From IMG/VR virus record IMGVR_UViG_3300006217_000030, positions 1 to 64,000 of that record: a stretch of 64,000 nt of DNA. The stretch is one strand, 5' to 3'. The DNA comes from a virus. Positions 15,038 through 35,505 of the stretch are shown in pieces. How positions within the stretch are numbered: position 1 is the first letter of the stretch; each line of letters starts with the position of its first letter. The position numbers were made by a program, and so were the translations under genes. The notes under the pieces were generated by a model that worked only from the letters and a program-made list of their open reading frames with translations, ran no database searches and was not told the DNA's origin.

Positions 15038-16681
15038 ATGAATAATGATTATAAGTTAGTACGTATGTTACTACGAGTTAGTTCTAACCAACAATTAGAA
15101 GCGGATGGCGATTTATCTGTACAACGTCAATTAGTAAAAGAATATATTGAATCACATGAAAATTGGAAATTAGATAACAAGGAATATTTCGAGGGCAGTA
15201 AAAGTGGGTATAAGAATACTGTTGTTGAGCGAGATGTGTTACAACAGGCATTACAAGACGCAATAAATCAAGAATACGATATTCTTGTTGTTTATAAAGA
15301 TGATAGAATAGGGCGTAGGATGTGGGAGATTGGTGCTTATGTAATGCAACTAAAAAGTTATAATGTTGACATTTATACAGTTAAGGATGGATGTATTTCA
15401 CCAGAAACAGATGATATTATGGGGCAAATGATGTTAGCCTTAAGATATGGTAATGCACAAAAGAGTAGTTCTGATACTGGAATGAGAGTAAAAGATACTG
15501 CACAAAAGTTAGTCCAAAAGGGTAAATTTATGGGTGGTAAAGCTCCATATGGATATGAATTGGTTTTTTCAGGCGAAATTAGCAAACATGGACGAGCATT
15601 GAAAAAATTGCAAATAGTTGATGAAAAGGCAGATGTAGTAAAATATATTTATAATTTATCGTTAACAAAAGAATATGGATCATATAAAATTGCAGAAGTA
15701 TTAAATTCAAATGACGATTATATAAAACTGGCACCAAATGATTTTTGGAAATCAGGTACGATTACTAGTATATTAACCAATCCTGTTTACGCTGGCTATG
15801 TTGCTTATAAACGCAGAGAGCGTATTAATGGCAAATATTTAAGGCTTAGTGATGATGAATGGATTAAGTCTGAAAACCGTAATGAAAACATTGCTATTAT
15901 TGATGAAGATATATGGAATGAAGTACAACGTAAACGGAAATTGCGCAGTAAAGAGTATCAAAAAAGTTTTGAAGAAAATGAATACAATTTGATTAAAAAA
16001 AATGATGGGTTTCTTCCATTTATAGATGTTGCTTATTGTGGATATTGTGGTACAAAATTAACAAATAATTCACAGTACAATTATTGGACAATAAAAGGGA
16101 CAGGTGAAAAACGCGCAAGTAGAATTGGAGTCTACAGATGTCAAATGGCTCAACAAGGTATCCCTCATGATAAAACATGCAGATTTAGGGCTGATAAAAT
16201 AGAAAATATTATTTTTGAAGATATATGTAAATACTTAGACTCTTTATTAGATAATATTGATTTATCCCAAAACGTAAAGAATATTAAAGATAATGAATGT
16301 CAGAAATTAAAGAAGAATTTAGATAAGAATAAAAGAGAGTTGGTTAAAATAAAAAATGGAATTGATATAATGGAAGAACATATGCCTGAAGCTATGATGG
16401 GTAATTATATATTATCTATAGAAGAATTAGCTCATGCCATTAAAAAACATAAAGCAAACTTAGAAGACACTGAGAAAAAGATAAAAAATATTCAAGAACA
16501 AATAGATGATATCAATAATTCCAACAAAGAAATGGATGATATAAAAAATAATATACCAAAGTGGAAAGAAATATTTATGGGAACTGATAAACATACACAA
16601 CGTGTTATAGTTAACAAAATAATAGATAAAGTTATTATGAAAAAAGATGAAATTCATATTATATATAAAATTAAAATATGA
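15038..16681 (+). CDS. int: Large serine recombinase (phage integrase)
   Basis: N-terminal resolvase catalytic domain with LLRVSSNQQ (catalytic Ser motif) and YKDDRIGRR. Recombinase domain. Cys cluster (CGYCGTKL...CQMAQ). C-terminal coiled coil. Length 547 aa. Confidence 0.9.
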   Translation: MNNDYKLVRMLLRVSSNQQLEADGDLSVQRQLVKEYIESHENWKLDNKEYFEGSKSGYKNTVVERDVLQQALQDAINQEYDILVVYKDDRIGRRMWEIGAYVMQLKSYNVDIYTVKDGCISPETDDIMGQMMLALRYGNAQKSSSDTGMRVKDTAQKLVQKGKFMGGKAPYGYELVFSGEISKHGRALKKLQIVDEKADVVKYIYNLSLTKEYGSYKIAEVLNSNDDYIKLAPNDFWKSGTITSILTNPVYAGYVAYKRRERINGKYLRLSDDEWIKSENRNENIAIIDEDIWNEVQRKRKLRSKEYQKSFEENEYNLIKKNDGFLPFIDVAYCGYCGTKLTNNSQYNYWTIKGTGEKRASRIGVYRCQMAQQGIPHDKTCRFRADKIENIIFEDICKYLDSLLDNIDLSQNVKNIKDNECQKLKKNLDKNKRELVKIKNGIDIMEEHMPEAMMGNYILSIEELAHAIKKHKANLEDTEKKIKNIQEQIDDINNSNKEMDDIKNNIPKWKEIFMGTDKHTQRVIVNKIIDKVIMKKDEIHIIYKIKI

Positions 16682-18451: not shown

Positions 18452-20041
18452 TTATTTCAATATCACTTTCGCAACGCTATCTGAAATAATCTGAATCACC
18501 CTGTATGAATTTTTTGTATCTTCATCACATGCTGTGGCAATACCTTCTGAATTACAGCAACAGTATCCATTAATTTTAAGGCTTCCATCCTGCCAGACAG
18601 AAAGTACTCCAAGCATTCCAACAGGCGACCATTCTGGACGTTCAAAACGAGATACATATGTTTGTGAAGAATCATAATCAGGATTTAACTTAGGACGCAT
18701 TTCATATACTATATCACCATTCTCATCAACAACTTCTTGCTCAACAACTTCTCTATTTTCATTCTCCTGCAATTCAGTTTTAGGAACTTCTTCGTATATT
18801 GTACGGTTGAAATCATCTTTAAGGTACATTCCGTTCCATGTATCACAGTCTCCATTTCCTAATACAAATGGTTCACCAGACACAATGCCTAAAATATAAT
18901 TTTCATTTGACGTTGCAATGGATATCTTATCCCCGTTTATTGTTACAAATTTACCAACCCTGTCTTCTTTGTCAGGGTTTCTGTCTTCCCATTCAAAAAA
19001 TTCTGCATAGTCTGCTGTTGTAGATGATGTAATGGTTGATTGTGCTTTTACCACTCCATCGTAATCAACGGAAAATGCATTATGTCTTATAAGAATAGCA
19101 TTACTAGAATTGTATGAGCCGTTTCCTATGGAGAACAAAACATCTTTCTCTACATTGCAAGTACCACAAGCAAAATTATTCTCTCCTTTTGCTATTGCTC
19201 TATATCCAGAAGCATGAGAACCTGTACCTATGGCTTTTGTGTATCGACCTTCCGCATGAGAACCTGTACCTCTGGCGTCTGTGTAAATACCTTCCGCATG
19301 AGAAAAATCTCCTAATGCTTCTGTGAAATCACCTTCCGCATGAGCTGCTTCTGCATTAGCTTTTGTGCATAGACCTTCCGCATGGGAATAATTACCACTA
19401 GCTTCAACATTACGACCAAAGGCAAAACTTTTTTCCCCAATAGCAGTACCCTCTTTTCTTCCAAAACTGACAGAATCATCACCATAAATGCTCTTTATGG
19501 CGTATGTATCACTAATCTTATTGCCATGACTATCTTTTGTAGCTTTTACAGCACTTGCTACACTCTTTTCGCTATCCGCAGTATTATCAACATTGTCCAG
19601 TCCGATATCTTTTGGGGAAATTGTAACATTTCCGGTTCTAAATTCACTTTCAGCAGAGCCTTTTATTCCGCTTACACCACTGGCAACAGGGGAAGTGGAA
19701 GAGCTGTCATCATTATTGTCACTGTTATCACCGCCCGTTGTGCCATTATTTGTACCATTTATGCCATATATTGTTACACTGTAATTGTCTGCTGCCGAAG
19801 GAGCAATGGAAAATATAATATTGACAGTATTATTATCTACAATATTGTAATCTGTAAAAATCAACCCATCTTCATCATTCATCTCAAACAGAATATCTTC
19901 TGTATCCAAATTATGTTTAATGGTAAAAACAGTTTTTACTCCGTCACCTGTTATAGTTGTGGCATATTTCTTTAAGGATTGCCCATTTGAACCGCCATCT
20001 ACACGGACAATCTCACTTTGTTTTGTCTTATATAAAATCAT
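18452..20041 (-). CDS. Tail fibre / receptor-binding protein with 14-aa tandem SHAEG repeats
   Basis: Repeats of the form ..SHAEGxYTxAxGxG (HAEGDFTEALGDFS / HAEGIYTDARGTGS / HAEGRYTKAIGTGS / HASGYRAIAKGENN). Gly/Asn/Thr-rich N-terminal region. Confidence 0.5.
   Translation of the reverse strand: MILYKTKQSEIVRVDGGSNGQSLKKYATTITGDGVKTVFTIKHNLDTEDILFEMNDEDGLIFTDYNIVDNNTVNIIFSIAPSAADNYSVTIYGINGTNNGTTGGDNSDNNDDSSSTSPVASGVSGIKGSAESEFRTGNVTISPKDIGLDNVDNTADSEKSVASAVKATKDSHGNKISDTYAIKSIYGDDSVSFGRKEGTAIGEKSFAFGRNVEASGNYSHAEGLCTKANAEAAHAEGDFTEALGDFSHAEGIYTDARGTGSHAEGRYTKAIGTGSHASGYRAIAKGENNFACGTCNVEKDVLFSIGNGSYNSSNAILIRHNAFSVDYDGVVKAQSTITSSTTADYAEFFEWEDRNPDKEDRVGKFVTINGDKISIATSNENYILGIVSGEPFVLGNGDCDTWNGMYLKDDFNRTIYEEVPKTELQENENREVVEQEVVDENGDIVYEMRPKLNPDYDSSQTYVSRFERPEWSPVGMLGVLSVWQDGSLKINGYCCCNSEGIATACDEDTKNSYRVIQIISDSVAKVILK
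19210..19380 (-). repeat. Intragenic tandem DNA repeat, ~42-nt period, 4 units (ccttccgcatgag...), encoding the 14-aa SHAEG repeats
   Basis: Directly visible repeated ccttccgcatgag at 19248, 19290, 19333 and 19375. Confidence 0.6.
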
Positions 20042-21817: not shown

Positions 21818-24800
21818 CTATGACAGCCCATGCTTCTGCAATATTTCTTCTAATTTCTCAAATTTGCCTGAAAGTTCATTTACTTGCTTTTTTAGGTTCT
21901 TAATTTCTGTATCTTTTTCATGTATTGTATTTGTTTGTTCTGTAACCATTTCATACAATGCCTGAATTGATGCTACTATAGGAGCTTCAAATTCATCATA
22001 TTTCAAGCCCCATGATAATTTAGAATCGTCAACAGAATCATTAAAATATTCCTCTGCTCCATCATCAGTAATAACAGAAGCTCCATATAATGCTAAATCA
22101 CCCATGTCAAGGTCTTTTGCTGCCTGCGCTACATGTTGTGCCCCAAACCCCATATGAATACGTTTGGAAGTGCTATTCTTAAAAGTATATTCAATTGGTT
22201 TAAGTGTATTGATAAAATTTAATGACTTCTGTTTGTTCATAATACTGATAACATCTTTTTGCTTAAGATCAGAAGTGGAGTTAATATTTGTTGCATGTAT
22301 TTCATTCCATGGGAATGTTATTGTGCCTAATGCGCTTTTTTCACATGCCTGCTCAATTCCATTCTCATCATGGGTATCTGCACGGAAAACCAGACGTTTA
22401 TTAGGAACACCACCGCTGCTTGTGGAACCGTATTCACCAAAAACGGAAAAGTAATAGATTTCATCATCACCGTTATATACTTTACAATGAAAAGCTTTGT
22501 TATCAGAGCCTGTTGAGCTACTTTCGCAATACAGGGCATCTCCTTGTCCGTAATTTGTAACCCGTAATGCTGGAGATGTATCGCTATGCCCAGTAATAAC
22601 AACACTATCATCTATAGTATTAACACCCAATAAGTATTCTCTGTCACCTCGTTCTGAGTTCATGCCTGCTTCGCTTCGGGCATAAATGCCGCACTGAGAA
22701 ATATCAGTATATCCCAAGTTGTCAACAAACCCATTACTGTCGTATAAACCAAATGACCACTTGCCATCATGCATGAAAGAGCAAAAACTTTCATTGATAT
22801 TAGAAGTTTTCTTATAAGAGGCAATCTGCATATTGTTTGGATCTGATTTTAAATAAATGCAGGAAGATCCGTTGTTGTTCATTGAATAGATTAAGTCATC
22901 TTTAATTTTCCAACCACCAATTTCTGCCTTCTTGATCCGAAGCAATTCATTCTCATCTAAATTATAGCTGAGTATTTCATTGTTGCTTTCATCATATACT
23001 TCTATAAACTTTTCTTCTAAATTGATGCACATTCCACTCTCACGAGGAGAATAATCTTCTGACTGTAATATACTTGTAATAATTCCTGCTGTAATCTTTA
23101 ATTTTCCGTTTCCGTCAGAATTGAAATCGAATATATTCTTTTCACCATCATTAATAACCATAGATGGTTTTGCTGGATCAAGCATAATGTGTTTCCCTGT
23201 TTCGCTACCAACCAATACATAACCAGAAAATTTCCCCGTACCATCAATAACTAAGCCATCAGTAGGAGAGTAGTGCATATAAATATGCTTATTTCCATTT
23301 ACTATCTTTGAAATAGAGAATGATGGAGTTCTTGCATCAATTTCAATAGTATTATCATTACAGACAATATGAAATCCGTTATCATCAATAGTATAAGTGC
23401 CAGATTTATTATAGATTTTCAACAACTCCGACATAATCAGTCTTGCAATTAATACCTCTGCATTTAATCCATAAGCCCATTTATATTGTTTTTCGTCATC
23501 ATCATAATAATAGATTTTCCCAAGTGCTAAACGGGTATGTTTCCAGCTATCAGAAGTGAAACATAGAAGATTATTAATCATGCGAATTTGTTCTCTATCG
23601 TATGCATTTTCGATATCATTCCATACACGCCCGGTTATCCCATATCGGTCAATCACAAACTCCTGATTATCAGCATTCGTAATCATGGTATTGGCAACAT
23701 CCAGCCCGGCTTCTTTCATGATAGCAAATTCCTGGTTTGTCATGTATCCTTTCTCAGCCTGTCTTGATACGGAATTAAAGTTTGTTGCAATGGAAGCTGC
23801 CTGTTGGAACAGGCTTTTCAAATCTGTCATTGGATTATTGGACTTTGTAACATCAGAAAATTCCACACTGATATGTGATAAATCAGAATAATCGAATGTA
23901 ATGGAAATCAGGCGCAGTTTGTAGATATCATTATCGACCTGTATGCGAATCCAGTTGCCAAGGGTAAAGTCGTCCCACAATGGTTTAAATTCCTGCATGG
24001 TTAGGAGGTTGCCGATTGTTGTATTGATGGAATAGCTGATTTCACATGCTCTTTCCAATTCTTCCGTGGCTCTCTTAATCAATCCTTCTACATTCTTAAT
24101 TATTTCTTCGTATTTTACTCCATCCCCAATATAATTATCATTTCTATAAGTATCTTCCCTTTTGAAAGAGCATAACTCAATCCAGAGGTCATCTCTGTAA
24201 GAACTATTATTATAATTCTTTAGAAAATTTTCCATATTGCATATTGATTTAATTTCTTTTATTCTATTTTCATATGAATCTCTTTCACTGCTAATAGAGT
24301 TTATCCTGCTTTCAAGATAAGCCATTCTCTCATCAAGTATTACAATACGGTCGTAATATTTTTTCAGCAAATCATTATAAATACCGGATTGATTTCCATT
24401 AGGATTGATATACTTTAACGTGCCAGCGTTATCAGAAGATATCTGTTCACTGTGCTTTGCAATAATCTGACTGCATGATTCGTATGCATCACGGAAAGAT
24501 TTCAGCCGGTTATAACAATATTTTGTATAATGGATAGGAGATAATTTTTGTGGGTCGTTTTCTCCATCATAACTTGCAGATACCCGTGGCTCAAAAGAAA
24601 TAACATCATCTGTCATCTCACTTTTTTCAAGTGACATTTCAAGTTGCTGTTTTAAATACATAAAATAGTCTGTTGTAAAAACTGAATTATCAGCAGAATT
24701 ATTATAATAAATACACCATCCATCTTTTACAGAAAGCGAGACAGAAGCAGTGTATTCATCATTCTGTGTTGTATCATCCTTATATGCATCTTTTAGCCAT

Positions 24801-26086
24801 ATATGGGAAGAAAAAGAAATGTTTGAATTTGATGAGCCTGTTAAAGATAACTCAATATCATATTCATTTGGCATAATCTGTTTTGCAAATGTTTTTATAG
24901 ACCTGAGTACACTATCATAAGTTTGATTCTCAGAAGATTTACAAGCATATGATATTTTTCCTCCGGCACCAAATAATTCTTCGTGTATTGACCTTGCTGT
25001 TGTATTAGACGAAGCCAAACTTGGCATCATTTCTGACTGGTAATACAATATTTTATCAACGCATTCGTTATATCTGTCCCATAAATTATTATATTCATTC
25101 TGATAAGAATTTACTAACGTATCATGTTCTATTAATGCCTTCTGGAGAGGTTCTGACATCTGTGATGTTTGGTCTGGTGAAAATATCCACATATAATTTC
25201 CATCCATCAGTCTGTCACCAATTAAATTAGTGATAATGTCATCAGCACCTTCAATCTTAAAGCAGTTCTTTACAGAATCTTTATCTCCTGTTAAAGTAAC
25301 AGATTCAACAAGATTCTGATTATCAATAAATACTCCTGTGTCTTTCCCATAACCATATGTAATATAATCAGAAGAGTGACAGTGCTGGCATACACCATCT
25401 TTTACCTTTCTATAGTTTCCGGCTGTAATACAAGATTGTCTGTTACAGTGGTCTTTTAGGTCATAACAATTAATTTCCCGTTTGAAATTATCAAAAATAA
25501 AAATACATTCAAGTTCCTCAGCTACAGTCTGTAAGAAATCGTATACCGTTTGGTCATTACAAGAAAAAGTTTTTTGTATACAGGCAACAGAAGCGTCTAT
25601 GTGTCCAATGGTATAGTGTGGCATAGATTTAAATATTCTATGCAGCAATGAGCCTTCTGTATTATTTTGATCATATATTACAGTTTTGACATAATCTTCT
25701 CTGGCAATGTCATCTTCCGTATTGATTTCCAGTGTAACTTTTGTCTGTGAAGTTTCTGCTTCCCCAAGGGATATTCCTGTAACTTGCTTATAAGCACATT
25801 CTTCAACTGTAAGCGGAGTTGCAATTTCAAAATACCCTTTTCCTTCCACAAGAATAATCTGTATATCATTAACCTTATACCAAAATGGATTTATTTCCCC
25901 ATTGTTATTCTTATATATTTTAAAACTGACTTCATCATTCTGATTTAATCGCATTACAGCATGCAAATCTTCAATTGGGTATAATTCTCCCTGTATATTT
26001 AATGTCCTGTCACAGATAAATACTTTATCCTGTTCAACAGAACCATCTAAATTTACAATAAATTGACTCATCTTATGGCAGCACAC
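21818..26086 (-). CDS. Tail-associated lysin / tail fibre (Tal-like, 1422 aa) with a peptidase-S74 intramolecular-chaperone domain near the C-terminus
   Basis: Position directly after Dit and its size. C-terminal region TSDLKQKDVISIMNK...HMGFGAQHVAQ matches the S74 chaperone signature. Terminal coiled coil. Confidence 0.65.
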   Translation of the reverse strand: MCCHKMSQFIVNLDGSVEQDKVFICDRTLNIQGELYPIEDLHAVMRLNQNDEVSFKIYKNNNGEINPFWYKVNDIQIILVEGKGYFEIATPLTVEECAYKQVTGISLGEAETSQTKVTLEINTEDDIAREDYVKTVIYDQNNTEGSLLHRIFKSMPHYTIGHIDASVACIQKTFSCNDQTVYDFLQTVAEELECIFIFDNFKREINCYDLKDHCNRQSCITAGNYRKVKDGVCQHCHSSDYITYGYGKDTGVFIDNQNLVESVTLTGDKDSVKNCFKIEGADDIITNLIGDRLMDGNYMWIFSPDQTSQMSEPLQKALIEHDTLVNSYQNEYNNLWDRYNECVDKILYYQSEMMPSLASSNTTARSIHEELFGAGGKISYACKSSENQTYDSVLRSIKTFAKQIMPNEYDIELSLTGSSNSNISFSSHIWLKDAYKDDTTQNDEYTASVSLSVKDGWCIYYNNSADNSVFTTDYFMYLKQQLEMSLEKSEMTDDVISFEPRVSASYDGENDPQKLSPIHYTKYCYNRLKSFRDAYESCSQIIAKHSEQISSDNAGTLKYINPNGNQSGIYNDLLKKYYDRIVILDERMAYLESRINSISSERDSYENRIKEIKSICNMENFLKNYNNSSYRDDLWIELCSFKREDTYRNDNYIGDGVKYEEIIKNVEGLIKRATEELERACEISYSINTTIGNLLTMQEFKPLWDDFTLGNWIRIQVDNDIYKLRLISITFDYSDLSHISVEFSDVTKSNNPMTDLKSLFQQAASIATNFNSVSRQAEKGYMTNQEFAIMKEAGLDVANTMITNADNQEFVIDRYGITGRVWNDIENAYDREQIRMINNLLCFTSDSWKHTRLALGKIYYYDDDEKQYKWAYGLNAEVLIARLIMSELLKIYNKSGTYTIDDNGFHIVCNDNTIEIDARTPSFSISKIVNGNKHIYMHYSPTDGLVIDGTGKFSGYVLVGSETGKHIMLDPAKPSMVINDGEKNIFDFNSDGNGKLKITAGIITSILQSEDYSPRESGMCINLEEKFIEVYDESNNEILSYNLDENELLRIKKAEIGGWKIKDDLIYSMNNNGSSCIYLKSDPNNMQIASYKKTSNINESFCSFMHDGKWSFGLYDSNGFVDNLGYTDISQCGIYARSEAGMNSERGDREYLLGVNTIDDSVVITGHSDTSPALRVTNYGQGDALYCESSSTGSDNKAFHCKVYNGDDEIYYFSVFGEYGSTSSGGVPNKRLVFRADTHDENGIEQACEKSALGTITFPWNEIHATNINSTSDLKQKDVISIMNKQKSLNFINTLKPIEYTFKNSTSKRIHMGFGAQHVAQAAKDLDMGDLALYGASVITDDGAEEYFNDSVDDSKLSWGLKYDEFEAPIVASIQALYEMVTEQTNTIHEKDTEIKNLKKQVNELSGKFEKLEEILQKHGLS

Positions 26087-26939
26087 TCCTTATTGTTCTA
26101 TAATGAAAAGACAGGTTGCAACTACCACCTGTCACAGTAAATACATTTTTTCTTGTTTCGTTTAATTCTGAAAAATTTATCAATCTCGGATATTTGAAAT
26201 TAAAGTCATTGTTAATATTTTCTCTTGTATGTACAGTATTTTTATTTGTTGCTATCATATGGTTAGCAATTGTAATATGTTCACCATTTTTACAGTTATT
26301 TATCTGTGTTGTGTATTGAATAGTGGGAGAGTAGAGTGTATCCAAATTATTTTTTATCTGTAACTTTTTAGCATCAGAAGTCATTAAAATATCAATTTCA
26401 TCGAAATATAAAGCACCTGTTTTATCACTATCGTTATAGATAGTAAATGAGCTTCCATTACTACATGATGCTTCAAATGTTTGTATATCACTGTATCCAA
26501 ATGGAGCATCGCAGGTAACATCTATCTGTGCCCCAACAATTTTTCCGGTCACACGTATCCATTGTAATTTATTCTGAGTACGAAAGAATGTATTTTCGTA
26601 TCCTTCGTAACCACCTTGAAAAAATCGTAGTAATTTATATCCATCTGTTCGTACCAGCCATCTAAGTAAAAAAGCACAGTTCTGTTGAGATAATTCATAA
26701 TTCCTGTCTTTATTAATACTACAATCAAATTTTCCGATTTGGAAACTTGTTGTTAATGGTGTTTCATATTTGCTTCCATGAAAATTCCACGAATATGAAT
26801 TCACTGGCTTAGAGGTAGTAAATGTAATTTCATTTCCTGCCATGCCGACACCATCATTGGAAAAGCCATCAAAGTTTGCTATATAATATCCGAGGTCAGA
26901 TGACTTGATTCCATTAAATTCAAAAATGTCTGCATACAT
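26073..26939 (-). CDS. Distal tail protein (Dit)-like
   Basis: ~288 aa gene immediately upstream of Tal, overlapping it by 14 nt. Typical siphovirus Dit size and position. Confidence 0.45.
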   Translation of the reverse strand: MYADIFEFNGIKSSDLGYYIANFDGFSNDGVGMAGNEITFTTSKPVNSYSWNFHGSKYETPLTTSFQIGKFDCSINKDRNYELSQQNCAFLLRWLVRTDGYKLLRFFQGGYEGYENTFFRTQNKLQWIRVTGKIVGAQIDVTCDAPFGYSDIQTFEASCSNGSSFTIYNDSDKTGALYFDEIDILMTSDAKKLQIKNNLDTLYSPTIQYTTQINNCKNGEHITIANHMIATNKNTVHTRENINNDFNFKYPRLINFSELNETRKNVFTVTGGSCNLSFHYRTIRSVLP

Positions 26940-26962: not shown

Positions 26963-27223
26963 TTATATTCCAAAGATTCTTCTCGTCTTTAGTCTTAAAA
27001 GCATCATTCTATATTTCCATCTGTTTTTAATACCAGTAATTTTTAGTTTGTCAAGTTCAACATACTTCTCGTACAATTTATCTATTATACTGGAATAACG
27101 TTCAATTTCTGATAATATATTTTCACTGATTTCTTCGTTGTTTATTTCATGCAATCTATTATTTTCATCCATTAATCTTTTATTATCGTTTACCAATAGT
27201 TCAATTTTTCTCTTTTTTGTCAT
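26963..27223 (-). CDS. hypothetical coiled-coil protein (86 aa)
   Basis: ORF. K/E/R-rich helical composition. Confidence 0.3.
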   Translation of the reverse strand: MTKKRKIELLVNDNKRLMDENNRLHEINNEEISENILSEIERYSSIIDKLYEKYVELDKLKITGIKNRWKYRMMLLRLKTRRIFGI

Positions 27224-27241: not shown

Positions 27242-27499
27242 TCATTTAGATAATTTTTTGCATAGAAAAAGAGCAGGAGAATATGTCTCTTGCTCTACAT
27301 TAAATTTACAATTACTATTTTTTAAATAATTTGTCGTAGAAATATCTATTTCTTTAGTAATGCGCCAAATGTAATTATCAGAAATTACATTTAGCACTTG
27401 ATATTTATTATTTTCCCAATTATCACTTGTGAAAGCAATACTTATATTAGAAAACGACAATCCTTTTGGAATGAAATTATTTTTATTTTTTGATGACAT
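27242..27499 (-). CDS. hypothetical protein (85 aa)
   Basis: ORF overlapping the upstream gene end by 17 nt. Confidence 0.3.
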   Translation of the reverse strand: MSSKNKNNFIPKGLSFSNISIAFTSDNWENNKYQVLNVISDNYIWRITKEIDISTTNYLKNSNCKFNVEQETYSPALFLCKKLSK

Positions 27500-28157
27500 C
27501 CTTTAATCTAATCCTTTCAAATACAACATTATTATTAATTTCAGAATCTATTATTGAACATCTTTCGAATACTTCCATTAAAATATTTTTGTATTGTCGA
27601 ATTGTTGTAAAATCGTATAGTCCTATATCATGATATTGATTAGTTAATTTTTCAAATTCTTCTTTGTGTTCAATTTTTCCAGCACTTATACATTTGTATG
27701 GAAAATCCCATTTTCTTTTTGCAACAAATATACCATTTGGTTGATTGTCATTTGGTGACAAACTAAACGTTGTGCCTTCAAATTCGTTTCCATTATAACC
27801 ACATACAATACTCATTATTTCATATGTTTTAGAATTTGATTTATCGTCATGAATCATTTTCAATTCATTAAATTTCTTTGTTATTATATATACAAACTCT
27901 TTGTATGACATAATTATATCATCGTTTAGTTTTGTTAATCCTTTTTCATTAGAGTAATTACAAAATCCCTCAAATAACTCATAATTATCTTTCACTCCAC
28001 CTGTACAACCAAAAATGATTTGACTATTTAATTTTACTAATTTATTACAACTATCAATCATTGTTCCATCTGGTTTTATTCCTCTTGTTTCAGCAGCAAC
28101 AATAATAAAATTTTCTGTAACAACAGCCTGTACTAAACTCATATGTTCTTCCTCCAA
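27483..28157 (-). CDS. HslV/proteasome-beta-like Ntn-hydrolase family protein (224 aa). Candidate moron.
   Basis: By-eye alignment to HslV: IIFGCTGGVKDNYELFEGF against VIAGFAGGTADAFTLFELF (9 of 19 identical). Upstream NKLVKLNSQI against KKVRRLYNDKV. Putative Thr nucleophile after a 13-aa propeptide (QAVV|TENFIIVAAETRG). Own promoter (TTGTAG-18-TATATAAT on the - strand, ~28178-28215) and RBS GGAGGAAGAACATATG. Confidence 0.35.
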   Translation of the reverse strand: MEEEHMSLVQAVVTENFIIVAAETRGIKPDGTMIDSCNKLVKLNSQIIFGCTGGVKDNYELFEGFCNYSNEKGLTKLNDDIIMSYKEFVYIITKKFNELKMIHDDKSNSKTYEIMSIVCGYNGNEFEGTTFSLSPNDNQPNGIFVAKRKWDFPYKCISAGKIEHKEEFEKLTNQYHDIGLYDFTTIRQYKNILMEVFERCSIIDSEINNNVVFERIRLKDVIKK

Positions 28158-28260
28158 TCATCAGTATATTATAAATTTAATTATATACCAATAATTGACA
28201 AATATCTACAAGAACGTATATTCTGAATTTTTACTTTGGTTATTGTTCATTTATTGATAA

Positions 28261-28283
28261 GAGGGCAGCATTACACCGCCCTC
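28261..28283 (-). terminator. Hairpin gagggcagcattacaccgccctc, 7 nt downstream of the TMP stop
   Basis: GC-rich 6-bp stem. Weak T tail. Separates the TMP from the promoter of the HslV-like gene. Confidence 0.35.
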
Positions 28284-28290
28284 CAAGTAA

Positions 28291-31200
28291 CTAAAACTTT
28301 TTCAGAACATTTTGGAACGGATTTTTAATATCACCCAATACGCATTCCGACATCCTCTGTTTATTTCTTGGCTGGTTTAGCTGTTGGAACATAGATTCCA
28401 TATCTACTATTCCGCTTCCATCTAAATGTACATTAATATCTCCCGTATTAACAGAAGTATTATTCGTGTTATTGACAGGGACACTTTCATACTTTGGCAT
28501 CATGTCAGTATACTCAAACGGCATACCAAGATGTGCCATTAATATCCGTTCCTGCTCTGGCGTAATCTTTGAACCAACAGGTATATACCTGTCTGCAATC
28601 TTCTTTACTGCTTTTGTCTCTTCTTTTGTGAGGACAGCTTCACCTTTCTGTATGGTAATTATTCCGTCATCACCGTTATCCTTTGCAGCTTTATTTAATG
28701 TACTTGCAATACCACCGTCTGCAAATCCAGCGTTCTTAAAGGCATTACGAATTTTAACGGATTCATCATAGGTAATGTTCTTTTTATCCTTAAGGCTGAT
28801 ACCAAGCATTTCGGCAAGTTCCGCTTCCTTTGCTTTGGTCAGATAACCTTTCTTATTGTATTTCTTATCAAGGTACTGCAATAGTTTGTCCGTTGCAATC
28901 CGCATGGATTCTTCCGTATTCTTTGGTTTGCGGAGGTTCTTTTTCAGAAAGGAATCAATTTCCGCATCCTTTCCAACCCTGTTATTATCAGATATGGTTT
29001 CCTTGCCTGCTGTTGCAGTATTGTTTGTGGTATCTGCAACATTATGTTCTGATGACGTTCCGTTTTGTACAGCCTGTACCAGATTATCCTTACTTTTTTC
29101 AACACTTTCACCGAATGCTTCTTTTTCATCCTGCAAAACCTTGTTTAAGTCGCTGGTTGTATCCGTGACACGTTTTACTTCGTAGGTTAAATCGTCTGCT
29201 GCGGAAGTTGTATCATCAATGCTTGTGTCAAACTTATTGTTTACATTCGTGCCTGTCTTGTCATATGTGGATTCATAGGAATTACCGCCATAATCAATAC
29301 TGCTGTTGGTATGTGTCCCGTCCGGGTTATATGTGGTAATAATGGACAGGGCATCTCCGAGTCCGAGTTCATCCAGTGCCCTTGCAACAGCTTCCGGGTT
29401 ATCCGTAACCATCTGTAACAGACTGTCCATGGAACCGTTTATGTCTTTTCTCAGGTCATTCATGATTCTTTCCCAGAAATCCTCTACTTCGTCAGCAAGG
29501 GTATCAAGCATGTCGGTCTGGTCATCATACCACTTATCATACTCCGTGTCCCTTAGTTCTTCCTGTGCTTCCTCAAGGCTGACCTGTAACTTTTGTAGTT
29601 TTGCCCTTGCTTCCTCACTGTGGTCACCTGATAATGCTGCAATCTGTTTCTGTATTAAAGCAATATTCTTTGTCTGCTTTGCAACCTTTTTTTGGTATTC
29701 GTATAAATCTTTCTCTGTTGCCAGTGCATTCTTTTTCTTTTCAATCAGCTCATTAATGGAATCAACCTGTACTTGTAATGCATTCTCTACAAGGTCAAGG
29801 ATGGCATCTTTCTCATCTGCAATGGCTTTTGTGCTGTCCCTTATGATATCAAGCTGCTCCTCACGCTTTGCCATAAATTCCTCTTCGTTGTATCCGTCTG
29901 TACCATCTGCATGTTTTTCATACAGTTTATCCAATTCCTTCTGTGCATTCTCAATAACCTTCTTATGATTATCCATGTTTGAGAATCGGAGCGATATGGT
30001 GGCAAACCCTTCATCCGTCAGACCTCCTGATTCCTTGCTGGTCAGTTCCTCATGTGAGAGCATGTCAACCAAAAAGTCAAGATGGCTCTTTGTGGCATCA
30101 AGCTGCGCTGCCATAAGTGAGAATTTCTTAAAGTCTAATTCATTGATGGCTTTTTGGAATTCAATGGTCTGCTGTGTGCAGGAGTAAAGGGACTGGTCAA
30201 TGGATTCCATGTCATTTTTCCATGCATACCATTCCTTAGAACCGTATTCAAACTTCTTCCCGGCTTCCTCCAGTTCCGAACGTTCCTTTAACAGCTTCTC
30301 TTTTGTGCCTTCATTAATCTTCATCATCCCATCATACAATGACTTGGAAACAGACTGCCCAGCGGCTTCCAGTGTGGCAATTTCAGACTGTATGGTTGAA
30401 ATCCTTGCGTCATTCAGACCTGTCTTATTGTCATATTCCGCTTTGATATTGTCATACATCTTTTGATAGGATTCATTGACTTTTTCCTGTTTCTCAGCCT
30501 GTAAGCGTTTCTGCTCTGTGGCATCGCCTTCCAGTTCAGCAATCTTAATCAGTTTATCGTACTGCTTATTCAGGTATTTCAGGCTTTCGGCTTCATATTT
30601 GTTCTTATCTTTTGCGGAAACAGCATTGGTTTCATACTGCTGGTTCAGGTTGTATTTTGCCTCTGCTTCATCAGCATAGTTTTGCGCCCGTTCTATGCGT
30701 TTCTCACGCATGTTTGTTTCATTCTGCTCTTTGGCAAGTTTCTTATCACGTAAAACATCTGCTACAAAATCAACACTGTTATTGTAGTTAAGAAGCTTTT
30801 GATAGGTTGCCGTATTGTGCTTTCTGACTTTCTTCATAAGGGCAGAAGGGATTTCCTTACCCTGCTTAATCAGTTTTTTGATTTTATTCTTCTCTGATTT
30901 GCTAAGCCCTTTTGTATTATTTACGGCAGACTTTGCAGTTTTCCCGCTCTTATTCCTTTGTGTTTTAGATTCCTGATAGTACTTTTTATATGCCTCGTTG
31001 TCTGACTTGTAGGTATTGATTTCCTTATTCAGAATCTTATGTTTCTCTTTTGCGGTTGTGGCATTGGCGTATCTTGCTTCCTGATAGGTGCGCTTTCTCT
31101 CGTTGTCCTCAAGCTTCAAGTCTAACTTCTGTTTTGAGAGGTCTTTGATTTCTGCTTTGAGTTCCTGTACCGCTTTTTTAGCATCTTTTACTTTATCAAT

Positions 31201-34200
31201 GTAATCCTGATATTTGTTAATCTGCTTTGCAGTCTTTTCACCGTATTCCCTGATTAATTCTGACAGGCTTCCTTTGATGTCACCGTTTCTGACTTTTTTC
31301 TTTAAAGGTTCTGAAAGTTTGATGCTGTCTGCTTTCTTATTGTATTTTGTAACGGCTTTCTGCTGTGCATTAAGAAGTTTTGTAGTCTTCTCTATCTGAT
31401 TCGTCAGGTTATTCTTTTGTCGTTTTACGGAAAACAGGTTGTCAAACTTTGCCTTGGTTAAGTCTATCTTGTCCTGTAATACATCCAGTTTACGTTCAAT
31501 CCAGTCAATAAGCTGTTTGGAATCTTTCTTTTTGTCTTTATCGGATGACTTTTTCGACTTAGATGATTTTTTCTGTGATTTCCTTTCAGAGGAAGAGTAA
31601 GTCCATCCTGGAATACCAGAACCAATAGATGCCCCATTTGTTGAACCAGCGTTATAAGCCATTTTCCCGCGGTTATTGGAAGACGTAATTTTGCCATTCT
31701 TTAAGAGCTGTCTTGTCTGCATATGGTTAAAGACAATATCGCCTTTTTTCAGTTCGGTAAACTGTGCGCCGCCTTTTACGGTGAACCATCTTCCGTCACG
31801 GACGATCAGTTCCTCACCAAGTTCATTGACTAATGCTGTCTGGTCTTTTGGGATGCTGATATTGCCGGAAGCATTTGCAAATCCCTGCTTTGCAAGGTTT
31901 CCTTTTAATAAATTAAAAGTCCCATTTGCATGTGATTTTTTATTATCACTTTTCTCTTCCTTTTCTTTATTTTTACTGTCCTTTTTTGATGGTTTAGAAG
32001 ACACTTTGTCAAGTTCGCTGGAATCAACCTCGACTTTTGCCTTAATGGTTTTCTGAAGTGTCTTATCCATAAACTCATTTACTGCTTTGTCATCAAGCTC
32101 CGTAGTGACTTTTAAAGTTGTCTCTTTCTTTTCTTTTTTATAGGCATCCACTTCTTTGTGGTTTACAATGGCATTGACCATTACATCAATGTCGTCTTTG
32201 CCTAATTTTTTCAGTTCATCCTTTGCGGAAGATATATCGTCAAAATCAATATGGATATCTGAAAGCTCTTTCCCATAATTGGACTTGATTGCTTTGATAT
32301 CACTTTTTATTTTTTTCTCCGTTTCCGATGTATCTGCGCCGATCTTCATCTGGATATCATAAGTATTGATTTCTTGCTGGATTCTTTGCAGCATGGATAC
32401 GACACCGACAGCTTTGCCGCTTAACTGGCTTGCATCAACCTGTAGGATGGCAGGCTTCTCAATCTCCTGTTTTTCTGTCAGTAGTTTGGCAAGGATGGTC
32501 TGTGCTTCCTTCGCGCCTTTTACATTGACATCCACGTTCCCGTCTTTATCCCTGAACGTATTTAATACATTTTTGGCATCTTCAATCTGCGTGTTTACTC
32601 TGCTGATATCGCCTGTATCGAACTTAAATTTCATCTTTTTACCGATTTTACCAAGTTCTTTTAATTTGCTGTAAGCTTTCTCAGCAGCAACCCCCATCAT
32701 TTCAAGGGAACCAAAACTGTCCCCAAAATCAATGTAAAATCCGTAATCAACCAGTTTCCGTAAAATAGCCTGTAAAGCTTCCACGTCAATTCCCAGCCTC
32801 TTGGCAACGTCTTTGTCACTGGAACCGCCTGCACCGAAATCAATCTCCCATGAGCCGTCTTTATTCATATGCGCCCATTCCGAATTGATTTTCTGCACGT
32901 CCTTTAAGAAATTCTCTGCACCCTTGTGCCCATCAGTGAAGTACCTTTCTATCTTGCCAATGCTTTGCTGGTATGCCCTGACAACTTCTTCAGTTGTTGC
33001 ACCTGCTAAGTCTTTTGGCGAAATAAGGTCAACATATGTGCGGAAGTCATCTGTGCCGACCAATCCCTTTTTATATAGTTCCTTTACCGACTTAATGTTA
33101 TTGTAAATGGAATCATACATGTCTCCTTCATTTGCAGTGGACAATGCTTCCTGCCACTTGTTATAGGCAGAGGTAAGCCCTACATACTGGTCTGCAAGCT
33201 GTGCCGCCTGCTGGTACTGGTCGTATAGGCTGTCAACAACGGACTGCTCCTCACCGTTCCTTAAAGCATCCTGCCATGAATTATAGGCATCCTCAACATT
33301 CTGGTAAAACTCTTTTGCGGTATTGTCGTCGTATTCCTTTTTGAGTTTTTCCAGTTCCCTTGTGTTGAGGCGGAGTCCGTTTGCTGTCTTGTCAAGAAGT
33401 TTGTCTTCATCATATCCTTTCAGGTCACTGAACATGGAAGTAACAGCATCAACAGAATCAGAGGATAACCCTGTGCCTGATACGGATTCTGACAGGGCAG
33501 TAGTGAGTGAAGATACATTTTCGGATACAGACTCGTATGTTTCTTTGAGTGCTTCTAACTGCTGTGCGGTTTTGTCAACAGCATCCATGGTAAGATATTT
33601 CCGTTTTGCTTCTGCTGCATTGTCAGCTTCAGCGGCAATTTCTTTCCATGTGTCAATTTCTTCTTTTGTGTTAATGGAATTTTCCTCAAAGAATTTTTCG
33701 AGGTCTTCTTTCTGGCTGTCATCCAGTTTCCATTTTTCTGCTGCGGATTTGATTGCACCATTGTAATCATTTACAAGTTCATCGAGATTGTCAAAGCCAA
33801 GGCTGGAAAGTAGTTTATTCTGTTGGTCATCTGTTTTTAATCCAATAGCGTTGCCGATTGTGCTGATAAGGGAACGGACTTTTGTAACGTACTCATTGAC
33901 AGGAAGTTTGTCTATTCCTTTTCCGAATAGCTGGCTCCATGCTTTGGAGAAATCTCCATCTTTAGAAACATTGTCAATTAACTTTTGGGCAAATATGGCA
34001 ATGTCATCTTGTGATTTTAAGTTTAGGTCATCCCATAATTCACTATTAAAAGATGATACCAAAGTAGTTATGGAATCTCTCTGCTTATCATTTAATTTTG
34101 AGTCATCCCAAAAATCTTCTTTCATATGTAGGGCATTGATTAAATCTGAACGTCCTTTTGCTACATCGGATTCTATATCAGCAGAAAATTGTTCTATTTT

Positions 34201-35505
34201 TGCCGCTATTTTATATTGCAGTTCTTGGAATTTTTCATCATTATATTCCAATATATCATCCACATCGGAGATATCAAGCATATCTGCTAATGTTTTTCTT
34301 AGAACATTTCTTTCGCCTTCTTCAAAATCAGCGAAAGTCCATACTTTTTTTAAATAGTTATAAATTTCTTTTCTGCTTTTGTTCTGTAAATCTTTTAATC
34401 CGTTTAATGCGTCTTCCGTTGGAACAGTATCTTCACTTGCTTTTCCAAATAAAGTAGCGAATCCTGCTTTTACTGTCTTCCAAACCGATTCGAATTTACC
34501 ATATTTTTTGTTATTTTCAATATTATCAAGTGTGTCTTGTACAGTTGCCCCTTCTTCATTGCCATTATAGAATAAATCTTTAGCTTTCGTTTTAATGGTT
34601 CGTTCGTACTCATCATTTAAGTCTGACAATTTCCCTTTGACAAACCCGATTTTTTCTCCCTGTGCATTGAAGTAAGTTGTTAAACTTGGCATTATATCAG
34701 ATACTTGGCTGATAATATCCTTATATTCATCATATTCGCTTGTAGAAAGTGAAACATTTTCGCCAAGATTATTTACACCTTTTGACAATTCCTGATATTT
34801 GGAATTCAAATCAGATAATTTTGATGAATCACTTGCAATATTTTCGTTTAATGAATTAACGGATGATGCAAAGCTATCAGCATTTTCTTTGGCTCTTTCT
34901 GATTCAGTTGCCAGGTCGTGAAGTCCTGTTGCAACTGTAGTTATTACTTCACTGATAGCCCACATAACACCAACATTGAGAGCCACAGAGAGTGCTTTAG
35001 CTGCGACTGTGGCCGCTTTTGCTCCGAGTGTCTGCTGCTTGAGGGCATTGTTGTGGGCGATGGCTGATTCACGGGCTGCTTTGTTGGCTTTGATTAGCCC
35101 TTTTTCTGTGATTATCTGTCCTTCCATCTCTTTGCCTAATTTTGCAAGATGTTTTTCACCTTCTGGAAGTGTATCAAATAAGTCCTGCCATGTTTTCTTG
35201 CCTTCTGCGACGCTTTTTGACATATCTTTAATTTTTGATAATGAATCTGCTATGTTAGATTCATCTATCTTAGGCATTACATCAATAAATTGTTCTTTGA
35301 GGTCTTTCTTATTAGAAAATAGATTACTCCATAAACTTCCAACCTGTTTTTTTGCATCAGATTTACGGATATTTTGATTTGTTAAATCTTTTATTGCAGA
35401 TTTGTAATTTTTTATATTATTTGCGAAATCATTAAATGACTTTCCAAACATACCCCACTTTGAACTTATTTTATCAATATCGCTGTCAAATGTTTTGAAT
35501 ATCAT
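28291..35505 (-). CDS. Tail tape measure protein, C-terminal/major portion (2404 aa): hydrophobic Gly/Ala segment followed by a very long coiled coil
   Basis: TMP-typical hydrophobic region (GAKAATVAAKALSVALNVGVMWAISEVITTVATGL) ~180 aa in, then ~2000 aa of K/E/Q-rich coiled coil. Located upstream of Dit and Tal. No SD-like RBS, and only 104 bp separate it from the divergent upstream gene. Confidence 0.7.
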   Translation of the reverse strand: MIFKTFDSDIDKISSKWGMFGKSFNDFANNIKNYKSAIKDLTNQNIRKSDAKKQVGSLWSNLFSNKKDLKEQFIDVMPKIDESNIADSLSKIKDMSKSVAEGKKTWQDLFDTLPEGEKHLAKLGKEMEGQIITEKGLIKANKAARESAIAHNNALKQQTLGAKAATVAAKALSVALNVGVMWAISEVITTVATGLHDLATESERAKENADSFASSVNSLNENIASDSSKLSDLNSKYQELSKGVNNLGENVSLSTSEYDEYKDIISQVSDIMPSLTTYFNAQGEKIGFVKGKLSDLNDEYERTIKTKAKDLFYNGNEEGATVQDTLDNIENNKKYGKFESVWKTVKAGFATLFGKASEDTVPTEDALNGLKDLQNKSRKEIYNYLKKVWTFADFEEGERNVLRKTLADMLDISDVDDILEYNDEKFQELQYKIAAKIEQFSADIESDVAKGRSDLINALHMKEDFWDDSKLNDKQRDSITTLVSSFNSELWDDLNLKSQDDIAIFAQKLIDNVSKDGDFSKAWSQLFGKGIDKLPVNEYVTKVRSLISTIGNAIGLKTDDQQNKLLSSLGFDNLDELVNDYNGAIKSAAEKWKLDDSQKEDLEKFFEENSINTKEEIDTWKEIAAEADNAAEAKRKYLTMDAVDKTAQQLEALKETYESVSENVSSLTTALSESVSGTGLSSDSVDAVTSMFSDLKGYDEDKLLDKTANGLRLNTRELEKLKKEYDDNTAKEFYQNVEDAYNSWQDALRNGEEQSVVDSLYDQYQQAAQLADQYVGLTSAYNKWQEALSTANEGDMYDSIYNNIKSVKELYKKGLVGTDDFRTYVDLISPKDLAGATTEEVVRAYQQSIGKIERYFTDGHKGAENFLKDVQKINSEWAHMNKDGSWEIDFGAGGSSDKDVAKRLGIDVEALQAILRKLVDYGFYIDFGDSFGSLEMMGVAAEKAYSKLKELGKIGKKMKFKFDTGDISRVNTQIEDAKNVLNTFRDKDGNVDVNVKGAKEAQTILAKLLTEKQEIEKPAILQVDASQLSGKAVGVVSMLQRIQQEINTYDIQMKIGADTSETEKKIKSDIKAIKSNYGKELSDIHIDFDDISSAKDELKKLGKDDIDVMVNAIVNHKEVDAYKKEKKETTLKVTTELDDKAVNEFMDKTLQKTIKAKVEVDSSELDKVSSKPSKKDSKNKEKEEKSDNKKSHANGTFNLLKGNLAKQGFANASGNISIPKDQTALVNELGEELIVRDGRWFTVKGGAQFTELKKGDIVFNHMQTRQLLKNGKITSSNNRGKMAYNAGSTNGASIGSGIPGWTYSSSERKSQKKSSKSKKSSDKDKKKDSKQLIDWIERKLDVLQDKIDLTKAKFDNLFSVKRQKNNLTNQIEKTTKLLNAQQKAVTKYNKKADSIKLSEPLKKKVRNGDIKGSLSELIREYGEKTAKQINKYQDYIDKVKDAKKAVQELKAEIKDLSKQKLDLKLEDNERKRTYQEARYANATTAKEKHKILNKEINTYKSDNEAYKKYYQESKTQRNKSGKTAKSAVNNTKGLSKSEKNKIKKLIKQGKEIPSALMKKVRKHNTATYQKLLNYNNSVDFVADVLRDKKLAKEQNETNMREKRIERAQNYADEAEAKYNLNQQYETNAVSAKDKNKYEAESLKYLNKQYDKLIKIAELEGDATEQKRLQAEKQEKVNESYQKMYDNIKAEYDNKTGLNDARISTIQSEIATLEAAGQSVSKSLYDGMMKINEGTKEKLLKERSELEEAGKKFEYGSKEWYAWKNDMESIDQSLYSCTQQTIEFQKAINELDFKKFSLMAAQLDATKSHLDFLVDMLSHEELTSKESGGLTDEGFATISLRFSNMDNHKKVIENAQKELDKLYEKHADGTDGYNEEEFMAKREEQLDIIRDSTKAIADEKDAILDLVENALQVQVDSINELIEKKKNALATEKDLYEYQKKVAKQTKNIALIQKQIAALSGDHSEEARAKLQKLQVSLEEAQEELRDTEYDKWYDDQTDMLDTLADEVEDFWERIMNDLRKDINGSMDSLLQMVTDNPEAVARALDELGLGDALSIITTYNPDGTHTNSSIDYGGNSYESTYDKTGTNVNNKFDTSIDDTTSAADDLTYEVKRVTDTTSDLNKVLQDEKEAFGESVEKSKDNLVQAVQNGTSSEHNVADTTNNTATAGKETISDNNRVGKDAEIDSFLKKNLRKPKNTEESMRIATDKLLQYLDKKYNKKGYLTKAKEAELAEMLGISLKDKKNITYDESVKIRNAFKNAGFADGGIASTLNKAAKDNGDDGIITIQKGEAVLTKEETKAVKKIADRYIPVGSKITPEQERILMAHLGMPFEYTDMMPKYESVPVNNTNNTSVNTGDINVHLDGSGIVDMESMFQQLNQPRNKQRMSECVLGDIKNPFQNVLKKF

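Follow-up and report, generated by a model that had tools for sequence, protein, structure and literature searches.

A proteasome-like Ntn hydrolase as candidate accessory cargo beside the tape-measure gene of a large phage

The window analysed here is a stretch of 64,000 nucleotides of viral DNA (positions 1 to 64,000 of IMG/VR record IMGVR_UViG_3300006217_000030), and the locus of interest lies on its minus strand. Read along that strand, it opens with the gene for a 2404-aa tape-measure-like protein (28291..35505), followed by a gene for a proteasome-beta/HslV-like Ntn hydrolase (27483..28142), an 85-aa ORF (27242..27499), an 86-aa coiled-coil ORF (26963..27223) and the gene for a Dit-like tail protein (26073..26939) that matches PF20195 and PF20753, the N and C domains of DUF6558. 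The original prediction had placed the hydrolase between a tape-measure protein (TMP) and Dit, and both flanks were recovered, with the two small ORFs lying between hydrolase and Dit. The 2404-aa protein has no match in Pfam or PHROG; BLASTP shows it to be homologous to the TMPs of related phages, including the PF10145-positive protein of locus L029. The 86-aa ORF was considered as cargo and rejected, given that small coiled-coil genes like it lie ahead of Dit with any cargo, and it is a positionally conserved gene of the tail module. The G+C content of the 27-28 kb interval, the cargo region, is 0.25, compared with 0.31-0.42 in the flanks.

The stop codon of the 2404-aa gene is followed, 6 nt on, by a terminator-like G+C-rich hairpin of 10 bp (28260..28284, minus strand, about -18 kcal/mol). 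It had been proposed to separate the hydrolase from the TMP gene; the hairpin is present, but it has no canonical U tract and was not called by the terminator scan. The hydrolase reading frame, earlier given as 27483-28157, is likewise present on the minus strand, and its GGAGG ribosome-binding site (28151..28155) was correctly recognized and is kept in the alignment of related upstream regions. The start had to be moved, however, since the listed TTG (28157) falls within the Shine-Dalgarno sequence. The true start is the ATG at 28142-28140, which GGAGG precedes by 8 nt, and the product is a protein of 219 aa that begins MSLVQAVVTENF... (also given as MSLVQAVVTENFIIVAAETRG...).

Profile comparisons place this protein among the proteasome-type hydrolases. 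The Pfam profile PF00227 covers residues 6-69 with a score of 27.5 bits (cut-off 22.4, E 3e-6), and it also hits 91 of 105 relatives, the best with an E value of 1.8e-10. When a profile of 16 homologs was compared with the PDB by hmmsearch, all 45 matches were proteasome or HslV chains (E ~1e-3), and hhalign aligned the 105-member family with Escherichia coli HslV at a probability of 95% (E 1.9e-8). Both methods give the pairing NKLVKLNSQI / IIFGCTGGVKDNYELFEGF with HslV, which reproduces exactly the core alignment first drawn by eye; the hhalign and PDB matches span hydrolase residues ~6-62 only. The single sequence retrieved nothing relevant from the PDB, and searches with the hydrolase found no HslV or other match in NCBIfam at E<=1 and no match in PHROGs.

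The predicted structure agrees with the profiles. An AlphaFold2 model of high confidence (pLDDT 92.2, pTM 0.89) has the four-layer alpha-beta-beta-alpha sandwich that defines PF00227 and MEROPS T1, and a Foldseek search with it gave 1021 matches at E<=0.001; among the matches listed, all are proteasome subunits or HslV. The membership in an Ntn-hydrolase family that had been suggested from the letters of the sequence thus holds for both profile and fold. In the model, helix H1 is reduced to residues 50-56 (7 residues), a beta-hairpin comes after it (61-71), a long helix occupies residues 80-99, and only 4 residues lie between S3 and S4.

Relatives of the hydrolase form 17 clusters among 5.8 billion proteins and 148 clusters (50% identity) among 1.84 billion proteins, and no member was found by megablast or tblastn in GenBank phages (INPHARED) or PLSDB plasmids. 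Only two named relatives were found, a hypothetical protein of Sporosarcina and the Bacillus gobiensis protein WP_053602186.1, which is annotated as 'Ntn hydrolase family protein'; BFVD adds about 20 further viral proteins with the same fold. The clade is rare and almost wholly metagenomic, and is nearly confined to metagenomes of Firmicutes and their phages. Homolog-bearing contigs include a Lachnospiraceae bacterium, a Robinsoniella MAG, a MAG labelled Paludibacteraceae and viral contigs of 80-160 kb. SPbeta-like traits are found among them (YomN, large serine recombinases and giant tape-measure proteins), and in the best explanation the carriers are large SPbeta-like temperate phages of Lachnospiraceae.

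Proteasome homologs of phages (PPH, AAH, CPH) and Firmicutes (FC1-FC5) were catalogued in 2021 by Fuchs, Alva and Lupas, who described them as proteins of unknown function with no informative genomic context (PMC8665760). Like the hydrolase, these homologs have a Thr1/Ser1-Asp17-Lys33 triad, no propeptide and no AAA+ partner, and they include an expansion in Firmicutes in which FC4 is linked to phage-tail-like domains. Our protein may belong to one of FC1-FC5, whose representatives are WP_075525441.1, WP_000217171.1, WP_098409529.1, WP_076223917.1 and WP_106036939.1 (PMC8665760). PPH is a protein of ~140 residues without helix H2 (PMC8665760), so the 219 aa and the long helix at 80-99 rule out that assignment. 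What distinguishes the hydrolase from the catalogued homologs is the context seen here, namely a promoter cassette, a candidate partner ORF and a hotspot.

The candidate partner is the 85-aa ORF, which shares 17 nt with the 3' end of the hydrolase gene and carries the motif FTSDNW. At nearly all loci a small ORF adjoins or overlaps the hydrolase gene at this end, and in 7 of 10 non-redundant loci it has a motif of the form [FV][TS]x[DN]x[WF] near its N-terminus (FTSDNW, VSKDHW, FTPNTW, VTKDYW, FSNDYW, FTNDYF and VTPDYW), against a background of 0.007 per ORF, a statistic that is indicative only because the data had been seen when the motif was defined. The stretch that overlaps the hydrolase frame does not include the motif, and the FTxDxW ORF occurs only with hydrolase cargo and is absent from other cargos. 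Across hydrolase loci the small ORF evolves fast. No homolog of the 85-aa ORF was found by sequence search among 5.8 billion proteins, so its tie to the small ORFs of other loci rests on the short motif. A terminator scan detected none downstream of the ORF. We suspect that hydrolase and FTxDxW ORF form a two-gene cargo unit, in which the small protein would be a substrate, an inhibitor or a specificity factor (adaptor) of the enzyme.

One way to read such a pair is that the hydrolase is a connectase-like or peptide-processing enzyme, which would recognize the FTxDxW leader of the small protein and cleave or ligate it to yield an active peptide or a modified protein. The model speaks against a connectase proper: the two-helix insertion between S3 and S4 that covers the active site of connectases is absent, its place being taken by the 4-residue connection. 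In addition, the motif was recognized post hoc, and loci L012 and L006 lack the motif ORF altogether. We consider this reading unlikely.

Upstream of the hydrolase ATG lies a promoter and 5' untranslated region (5'UTR) of ~85-90 nt that is conserved far above the level of the protein itself. This cassette (28140..28228, minus strand) is recovered with an E value of 2.6e-14 by an nhmmer profile of 47 cassettes from related phages, and the copy before the hydrolase is the only one in the window. Its core is an invariant 16-mer, ATTATTGGTATATAAT (28180..28195, minus strand), whose last six bases (28185-28180) are a perfect -10 hexamer, TATAAT. The 16-mer is identical, and the cassette as a whole nearly so, before homologs that share only 35-50% protein identity, with one copy per locus. 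A weak -35-like hexamer, TAGATA, lies 17 nt from the -10 (28203..28208, minus strand). Promoter-like hexamer pairs are near chance in this AT-rich window (17 found, 11.7 +/- 3.5 expected), and it is the comparison of cassettes across phages that makes the promoter convincing. A -35/-10-like promoter, as described by the original prediction, is present at the sequence level. The alternative that TATAAT is a mere part of an RNA element transcribed from farther upstream was rejected, as no conserved upstream promoter was found.

Farther upstream, the cassette contains a palindromic box, GAATATACGTTC (28212..28223, minus strand), which fits GAAC-N4-GTTC with one mismatch and is a candidate operator. 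Of 42 cassettes, 34 have a box of this type, and its distance from the -10 is fixed at 26-27 nt; the background is 0.014 per 40 nt. The pattern GAAC-N4-GTTC is that of Gram-positive LexA sites (the Cheo box). The cassette promoter is probably controlled by a repressor.

The cassette also holds a conserved inverted repeat of RNA type (28155..28197, minus strand; RNAfold and RNAalifold). Its 5' arm (28183-28197) contains the -10, and its 3' arm (28155-28169) abuts the Shine-Dalgarno sequence and takes in its first G. RNAalifold predicts 13 pairs, in which changes are nearly always pair-preserving and G.U pairs are many, and this pattern points to pairing at the RNA level on the sense strand. Rfam has no family that matches the hairpin. 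The 5' arm would be missing from any transcript begun at the promoter of the cassette, so the helix could form only in transcripts that read through from the late operon. There it would mask the Shine-Dalgarno sequence, and in this way may insulate translation of the hydrolase from late transcription.

Two known systems offer parallels. In IS10/Tn10, fold-back inhibition of transposase translation was reportedly described by Davis, Simons and Kleckner in 1985; as proposed for the cassette, the ribosome-binding region pairs with sequence that lies ahead of the element's own start of transcription, and only transcripts of the internal promoter are translatable. In the cassette, by contrast, the fold-back is deduced from sequence and covariation, and the genes that it would govern are phage cargo rather than a transposase. 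The second parallel is SPBRE, the SPbeta repeated element that is bound by the master repressor MrpR (PMC10516654). Both are short elements that recur in promoters of accessory or early genes, a toxin gene among them, of large temperate Firmicute phages; their sequences are unrelated as far as seen, and the cassette box is LexA-site-like. If the cassette works as the SPBRE/MrpR regulon does, the genes behind it could be silenced in the lysogen and come on at induction; as a point against the reading preferred below, a repeated promoter element of this kind could denote early-lytic rather than lysogen-expressed genes. Use and regulation of the promoter are read here from the DNA.

In IMG/VR the 16-mer has at least 120 matches, about 50 of them with the full cassette (AAACATATGTTCTGATAGTATTCTGTCGATTATTGGTATATAATGGTAATATTAAATACTAATGATTGGGG...ATG). 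These full cassettes precede 19 unrelated gene clusters, among which the hydrolase is the commonest. The others include at least three families of PemK/MazF-like toxins, two of DUF3800, several proteins that have a transmembrane segment at the N-terminus and a GmrSD nuclease that matches PADLOC PDC-M55C at 8e-55. The cassette may serve as a marker with which to find new accessory or defence genes in related gut phages.

The position of the cassette is also recurrent. In most cases the hydrolase comes after a TMP gene or part of one (in the window and in L003, L004, L006, L009, L016 and L029), and the hydrolases at these loci are only 33-64% identical. In related phages of 100-160 kb, the same cassette is found at the TMP/Dit junction before other cargo, namely MazF-like toxins, a GmrSD nuclease, DUF3800 and membrane proteins. 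For instance, L044 and the hydrolase carrier L016 have TMPs that are 91% identical and Dit proteins that are 90% identical, and different cargo between them, which in L044 is a 43-aa basic peptide and a 215-aa membrane protein. In L075, a 520-aa GmrSD/DUF262 nuclease lies between TMP and Dit, and L069, L120, L051 and L114 have yet other cargo at the junction. Hydrolase homologs are also found away from tails: beside an integrase, near ArdA and a YoeB/Phd pair, and alone in a chromosomal context. Given this replacement of cargo between TMP and Dit genes that are ~90% identical, and the homologs in non-tail contexts, adjacency to the TMP does not amount to a functional tie.

These observations bear on the possibility that the hydrolase is a tail-morphogenesis protease, which would process the giant TMP or another tail component and for that reason sit beside the TMP gene. 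The near-constant adjacency could still reflect such a role, since at the loci named above a TMP gene or its C-terminal fragment stands directly upstream of the hydrolase gene despite the divergence of the hydrolases, and the FC4 proteasome homologs of Firmicutes are fused to phage-tail-like domains (PMC8665760). Against this stand phages with ~90% identical TMP and Dit and unrelated cargo in place of the hydrolase (L044, L075, L069 and L120), a cassette of the hydrolase's own that is common to toxins and a nuclease, the homologs in non-tail contexts and the atypical G+C content. The hairpin, moreover, would block translation when the late operon is read through, whereas a late morphogenesis gene would need the reverse. 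A function in tail assembly is, in our view, improbable.

An independent moron-type unit inside the tail module, as the gene had originally been described, is strongly supported by the comparison of loci: the cassette stands at the TMP/Dit junction before other cargos, and the cargo itself is replaced in syntenic relatives. At the sequence level, the unit has the promoter of its own that is expected of a moron, a perfect TATAAT within an element conserved across cargos and phages. In P2 and P4, alternative cargo that includes defence genes is found at one fixed position. The hydrolase site resembles such hotspots in that related phages carry alternative cargos at one fixed position. It also resembles the gp15 moron in the tail module of HK97 (PMC3430355). 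Such a moron is self-contained and lies with its own promoter inside a late operon. A difference from known morons is that promoter, 5'UTR and ribosome-binding site here form a conserved, portable cassette that stands before at least 19 families of cargo. We know of no proteasome-like peptidase function among morons.

Three alignments, including those from hmmsearch against the PDB and from hhalign, agree on one indel-free register in which residue n of the query corresponds to residue n-1 of HslV and the beta subunits: Ser2 pairs with Thr1, Glu18 with Asp/Glu17, Lys34 with Lys33 and Gly48 with Gly47. Conservation was counted over 105 full-length relatives, with identities down to 15-25%. Ser2 is kept in 102 of them and replaced by Thr in none, position 18 is Asp or Glu in all 105 (Glu in the window protein), Lys34 is kept in 102 and Gly48 in 105. 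The candidate equivalents of the supporting residues Ser129, Asp166 and Ser169 are less uniform: Asp199 is kept in 93 of 105 relatives, residue 201 is Thr or Ser in 92 of 105 and Glu in the window protein, and position 153 varies. In the sequence alignment of the 105 relatives, conservation is lacking for the Ser129 equivalent and imperfect for that of Ser169. By profile, fold and conserved catalytic residues, the identification of the protein as a proteasome/HslV-like Ntn hydrolase is supported.

N-termini across the family read MS[LIV][VI]; database starts with MIGG... or MVGG... ahead of MSLV are mis-called. We predict that the nucleophile is Ser2, the equivalent of Thr1. As this residue follows Met1 directly, maturation should need removal of Met alone and no propeptide. 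Methionine aminopeptidase prefers a small second residue, a specificity by which Met1 should be removed and Ser exposed. The N-terminal Ser would then act together with Glu18, Lys34 and Gly48, the last contributing the oxyanion hole. Ser is able to replace Thr in the proteasome active site, although less efficiently (PMC4792962). We infer from these residues that the hydrolase is catalytically active.

The reverse has also to be considered, that the protein is a catalytically dead scaffold that has kept the proteasome fold, in the manner of an alpha subunit, for binding or assembly only. The poorly kept equivalents of Ser129 and Ser169, Glu201 in the window protein and the truncated H1 would all fit a loss of activity. 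On the other hand, the near invariance of Ser2, Asp/Glu18, Lys34 and Gly48 at 15-25% identity is hard to explain without catalysis, and we regard a dead scaffold as a poor prospect.

A peptidase acting through Ser2 shares with HslV (ClpQ) and the 20S proteasome beta subunits (MEROPS T1, PF00227) the alpha-beta-beta-alpha Ntn fold and, in register, the N-terminal nucleophile, Asp/Glu17, Lys33 and Gly47; with HslV of Gram-negative bacteria it would also share the lack of any propeptide beyond Met1. It differs in the family-wide Ser for Thr, in its length (219 aa compared with ~175 for HslV), in the 7-residue H1 followed by the beta-hairpin, in the Ser129 equivalent that is not conserved and in the lack of an HslU/AAA+ neighbour. 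A search of the window for an AAA+ partner found Walker-A matches only in three ORFs of 181-225 aa; these are far too short for an HslU-type unfoldase, so the window encodes none, and no AAA+ partner gene was found in the homolog loci either. Together with the absence of an NCBIfam match, these differences set aside the filing of the protein as HslV proper. The protein belongs to a clade of proteasome-beta/HslV-like Ntn hydrolases that is uncharacterised, and is an unstudied relative of the proteasome/HslV peptidase.

The idea of an autoprocessed Thr9 nucleophile was a reasonable one, since HslV of Staphylococcus aureus sheds 8 residues and exposes Thr9 (PMC7468587) and the window protein does have Thr at position 9, but it is inapplicable here. 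An HslV orthologue that removes an 8-residue propeptide to expose its own Thr9 and teams with host HslU is rejected as highly implausible, in view of the indel-free register on Ser2, a Thr9 register that would leave Gln41 and no Lys at the position of Lys33, the variability of Thr9 (kept in 53 of 105 relatives) and its place in the turn that joins S1 (residues 4-8) to S2 (12-18) in the model, and the missing NCBIfam HslV match and AAA+ gene.

The explanation that we prefer is that of an accessory Ser-Ntn peptidase with a small partner, carried as cassette-driven hotspot cargo and having a regulated role in phage-host or phage-phage conflict, and we hold this reading, taken whole, to be probable. 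In this scenario, the two-gene unit would stand behind a portable cassette with its GAAC-N4-GTTC-like box, perfect -10 and fold-back hairpin, at a hotspot next to the tape-measure gene that can hold many different cargos; as one of these swappable cargos, the hydrolase would be accessory rather than tail-building. Its role may be in defence, exclusion or takeover. The roles originally proposed, in host takeover, lysogenic conversion or inter-phage conflict, would be backed by the cassette and hotspot that the hydrolase has in common with toxin and defence genes; this guilt by association is weak, given that GmrSD is the sole established defence family among the cargos. PADLOC 2.0 found no defence-model match at E<=1 for the hydrolase or either small ORF.

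A more specific proposal, which we put forward as speculative and doubtful in its entirety, is that hydrolase and FTxDxW partner constitute a new two-component, protease-based conflict module, acting for example in abortive infection, exclusion or connectase-like peptide processing, and delivered into TMP-side hotspots by an undescribed portable cassette with an SOS-box-like operator and an insulating fold-back hairpin. If true, a proteasome homolog carried by a phage would for the first time have a biological function assigned to it, and large gut phages would use the cassette to plug interchangeable toxin and defence cargos in beside the tape-measure gene. The unit offers three testable handles, the invariant Ser-Glu/Asp-Lys active site, the putative dedicated small partner and the membership in a set of interchangeable cargos. 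Together, these would point to microbial conflict and give a direct experimental route in phages that are abundant in the human gut.

Among close alleles, 8 variable codons are synonymous and 10 non-synonymous, which is roughly consistent with moderate purifying selection.

In IMG/VR phages of 100-160 kb, an 85-nt promoter/5'UTR/RBS cassette with the core ATTATTGGTATATAAT recurs in front of cargo genes, at least 19 of them unrelated to one another, and in most cases the big tape-measure gene lies directly 5' or 3' of it. The cassette occupies positions 28140-28228 (minus strand) of the window, and it also occurs in related phage loci L033-L152. Cargos include MazF-like toxins, DUF3800 proteins, a GmrSD nuclease and membrane proteins.

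Further cassette cargos have a two-gene layout (L044 4979-5754, L103 8098-8907, L120 and L051). One type pairs a very basic peptide of 43-46 aa with a membrane protein of ~200-215 aa, and another pairs a membrane protein of ~380 aa with a protein of 70-81 aa. This organization is reminiscent of toxin/immunity pairs.

The MIGG, MIGE and MVGG starts in public gene calls are artefacts, because ATGATTGGAGG of the cassette, which comprises a hairpin arm and the SD, has been read as a start codon. Affected are database proteins P0019, P0033, P0034, P0039 and P0082, as well as cargo ORFs in L033, L071 and other loci.

Two tape-measure-like genes are present in the window, separated by ~6 kb of other ORFs. 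The 658-aa product of the first (41687-43663, minus strand) carries PF10145 and matches residues 552-949 of a 2625-aa tape-measure PHROG, and the 2404-aa ORF (28291-35505, minus strand) has no Pfam match. Among related phages, a single fused gene occurs in L029 and two genes occur in L003, which leads us to suggest that the tape-measure gene of the window was split by accessory islands. The 2404-aa gene shows a strong AT skew, and its GC content is unusually high, reaching 0.42 where the window as a whole has ~0.31. In L016 (921-7859), a GIY-YIG/NUMOD homing endonuclease gene separates the tape-measure gene (1638 aa) from an ORF of 186 aa. Because this ORF shows homology to the C-terminal end of intact tape-measure proteins, the homing endonuclease appears to have split the tape-measure gene. 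The same arrangement recurs in L014 and L103.

Amid tail-fibre-like genes lies a second defence-type gene of the phage structural region (48237-49208, minus strand), whose 323-aa product contains a GmrSD_N (DUF262) domain; the cassette is not present before this gene. Three tail proteins (18452-20041, 21818-26086 and 44725-46464, all minus strand) have intramolecular chaperone or autoproteolytic domains, Peptidase_G2 in one (pre-neck-appendage-like) and Peptidase_S74, the chaperone of endosialidase, in two.

Adjoining the tail genes on the opposite (plus) strand are genes for an NAD-dependent DNA ligase (2251-4254), the anaerobic ribonucleotide reductase NrdD (9142-11298) and a large serine recombinase (15038-16681), a set consistent with a large SPbeta-like temperate phage that infects an anaerobe. 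The GC skew of the window flips near 16.8 kb.
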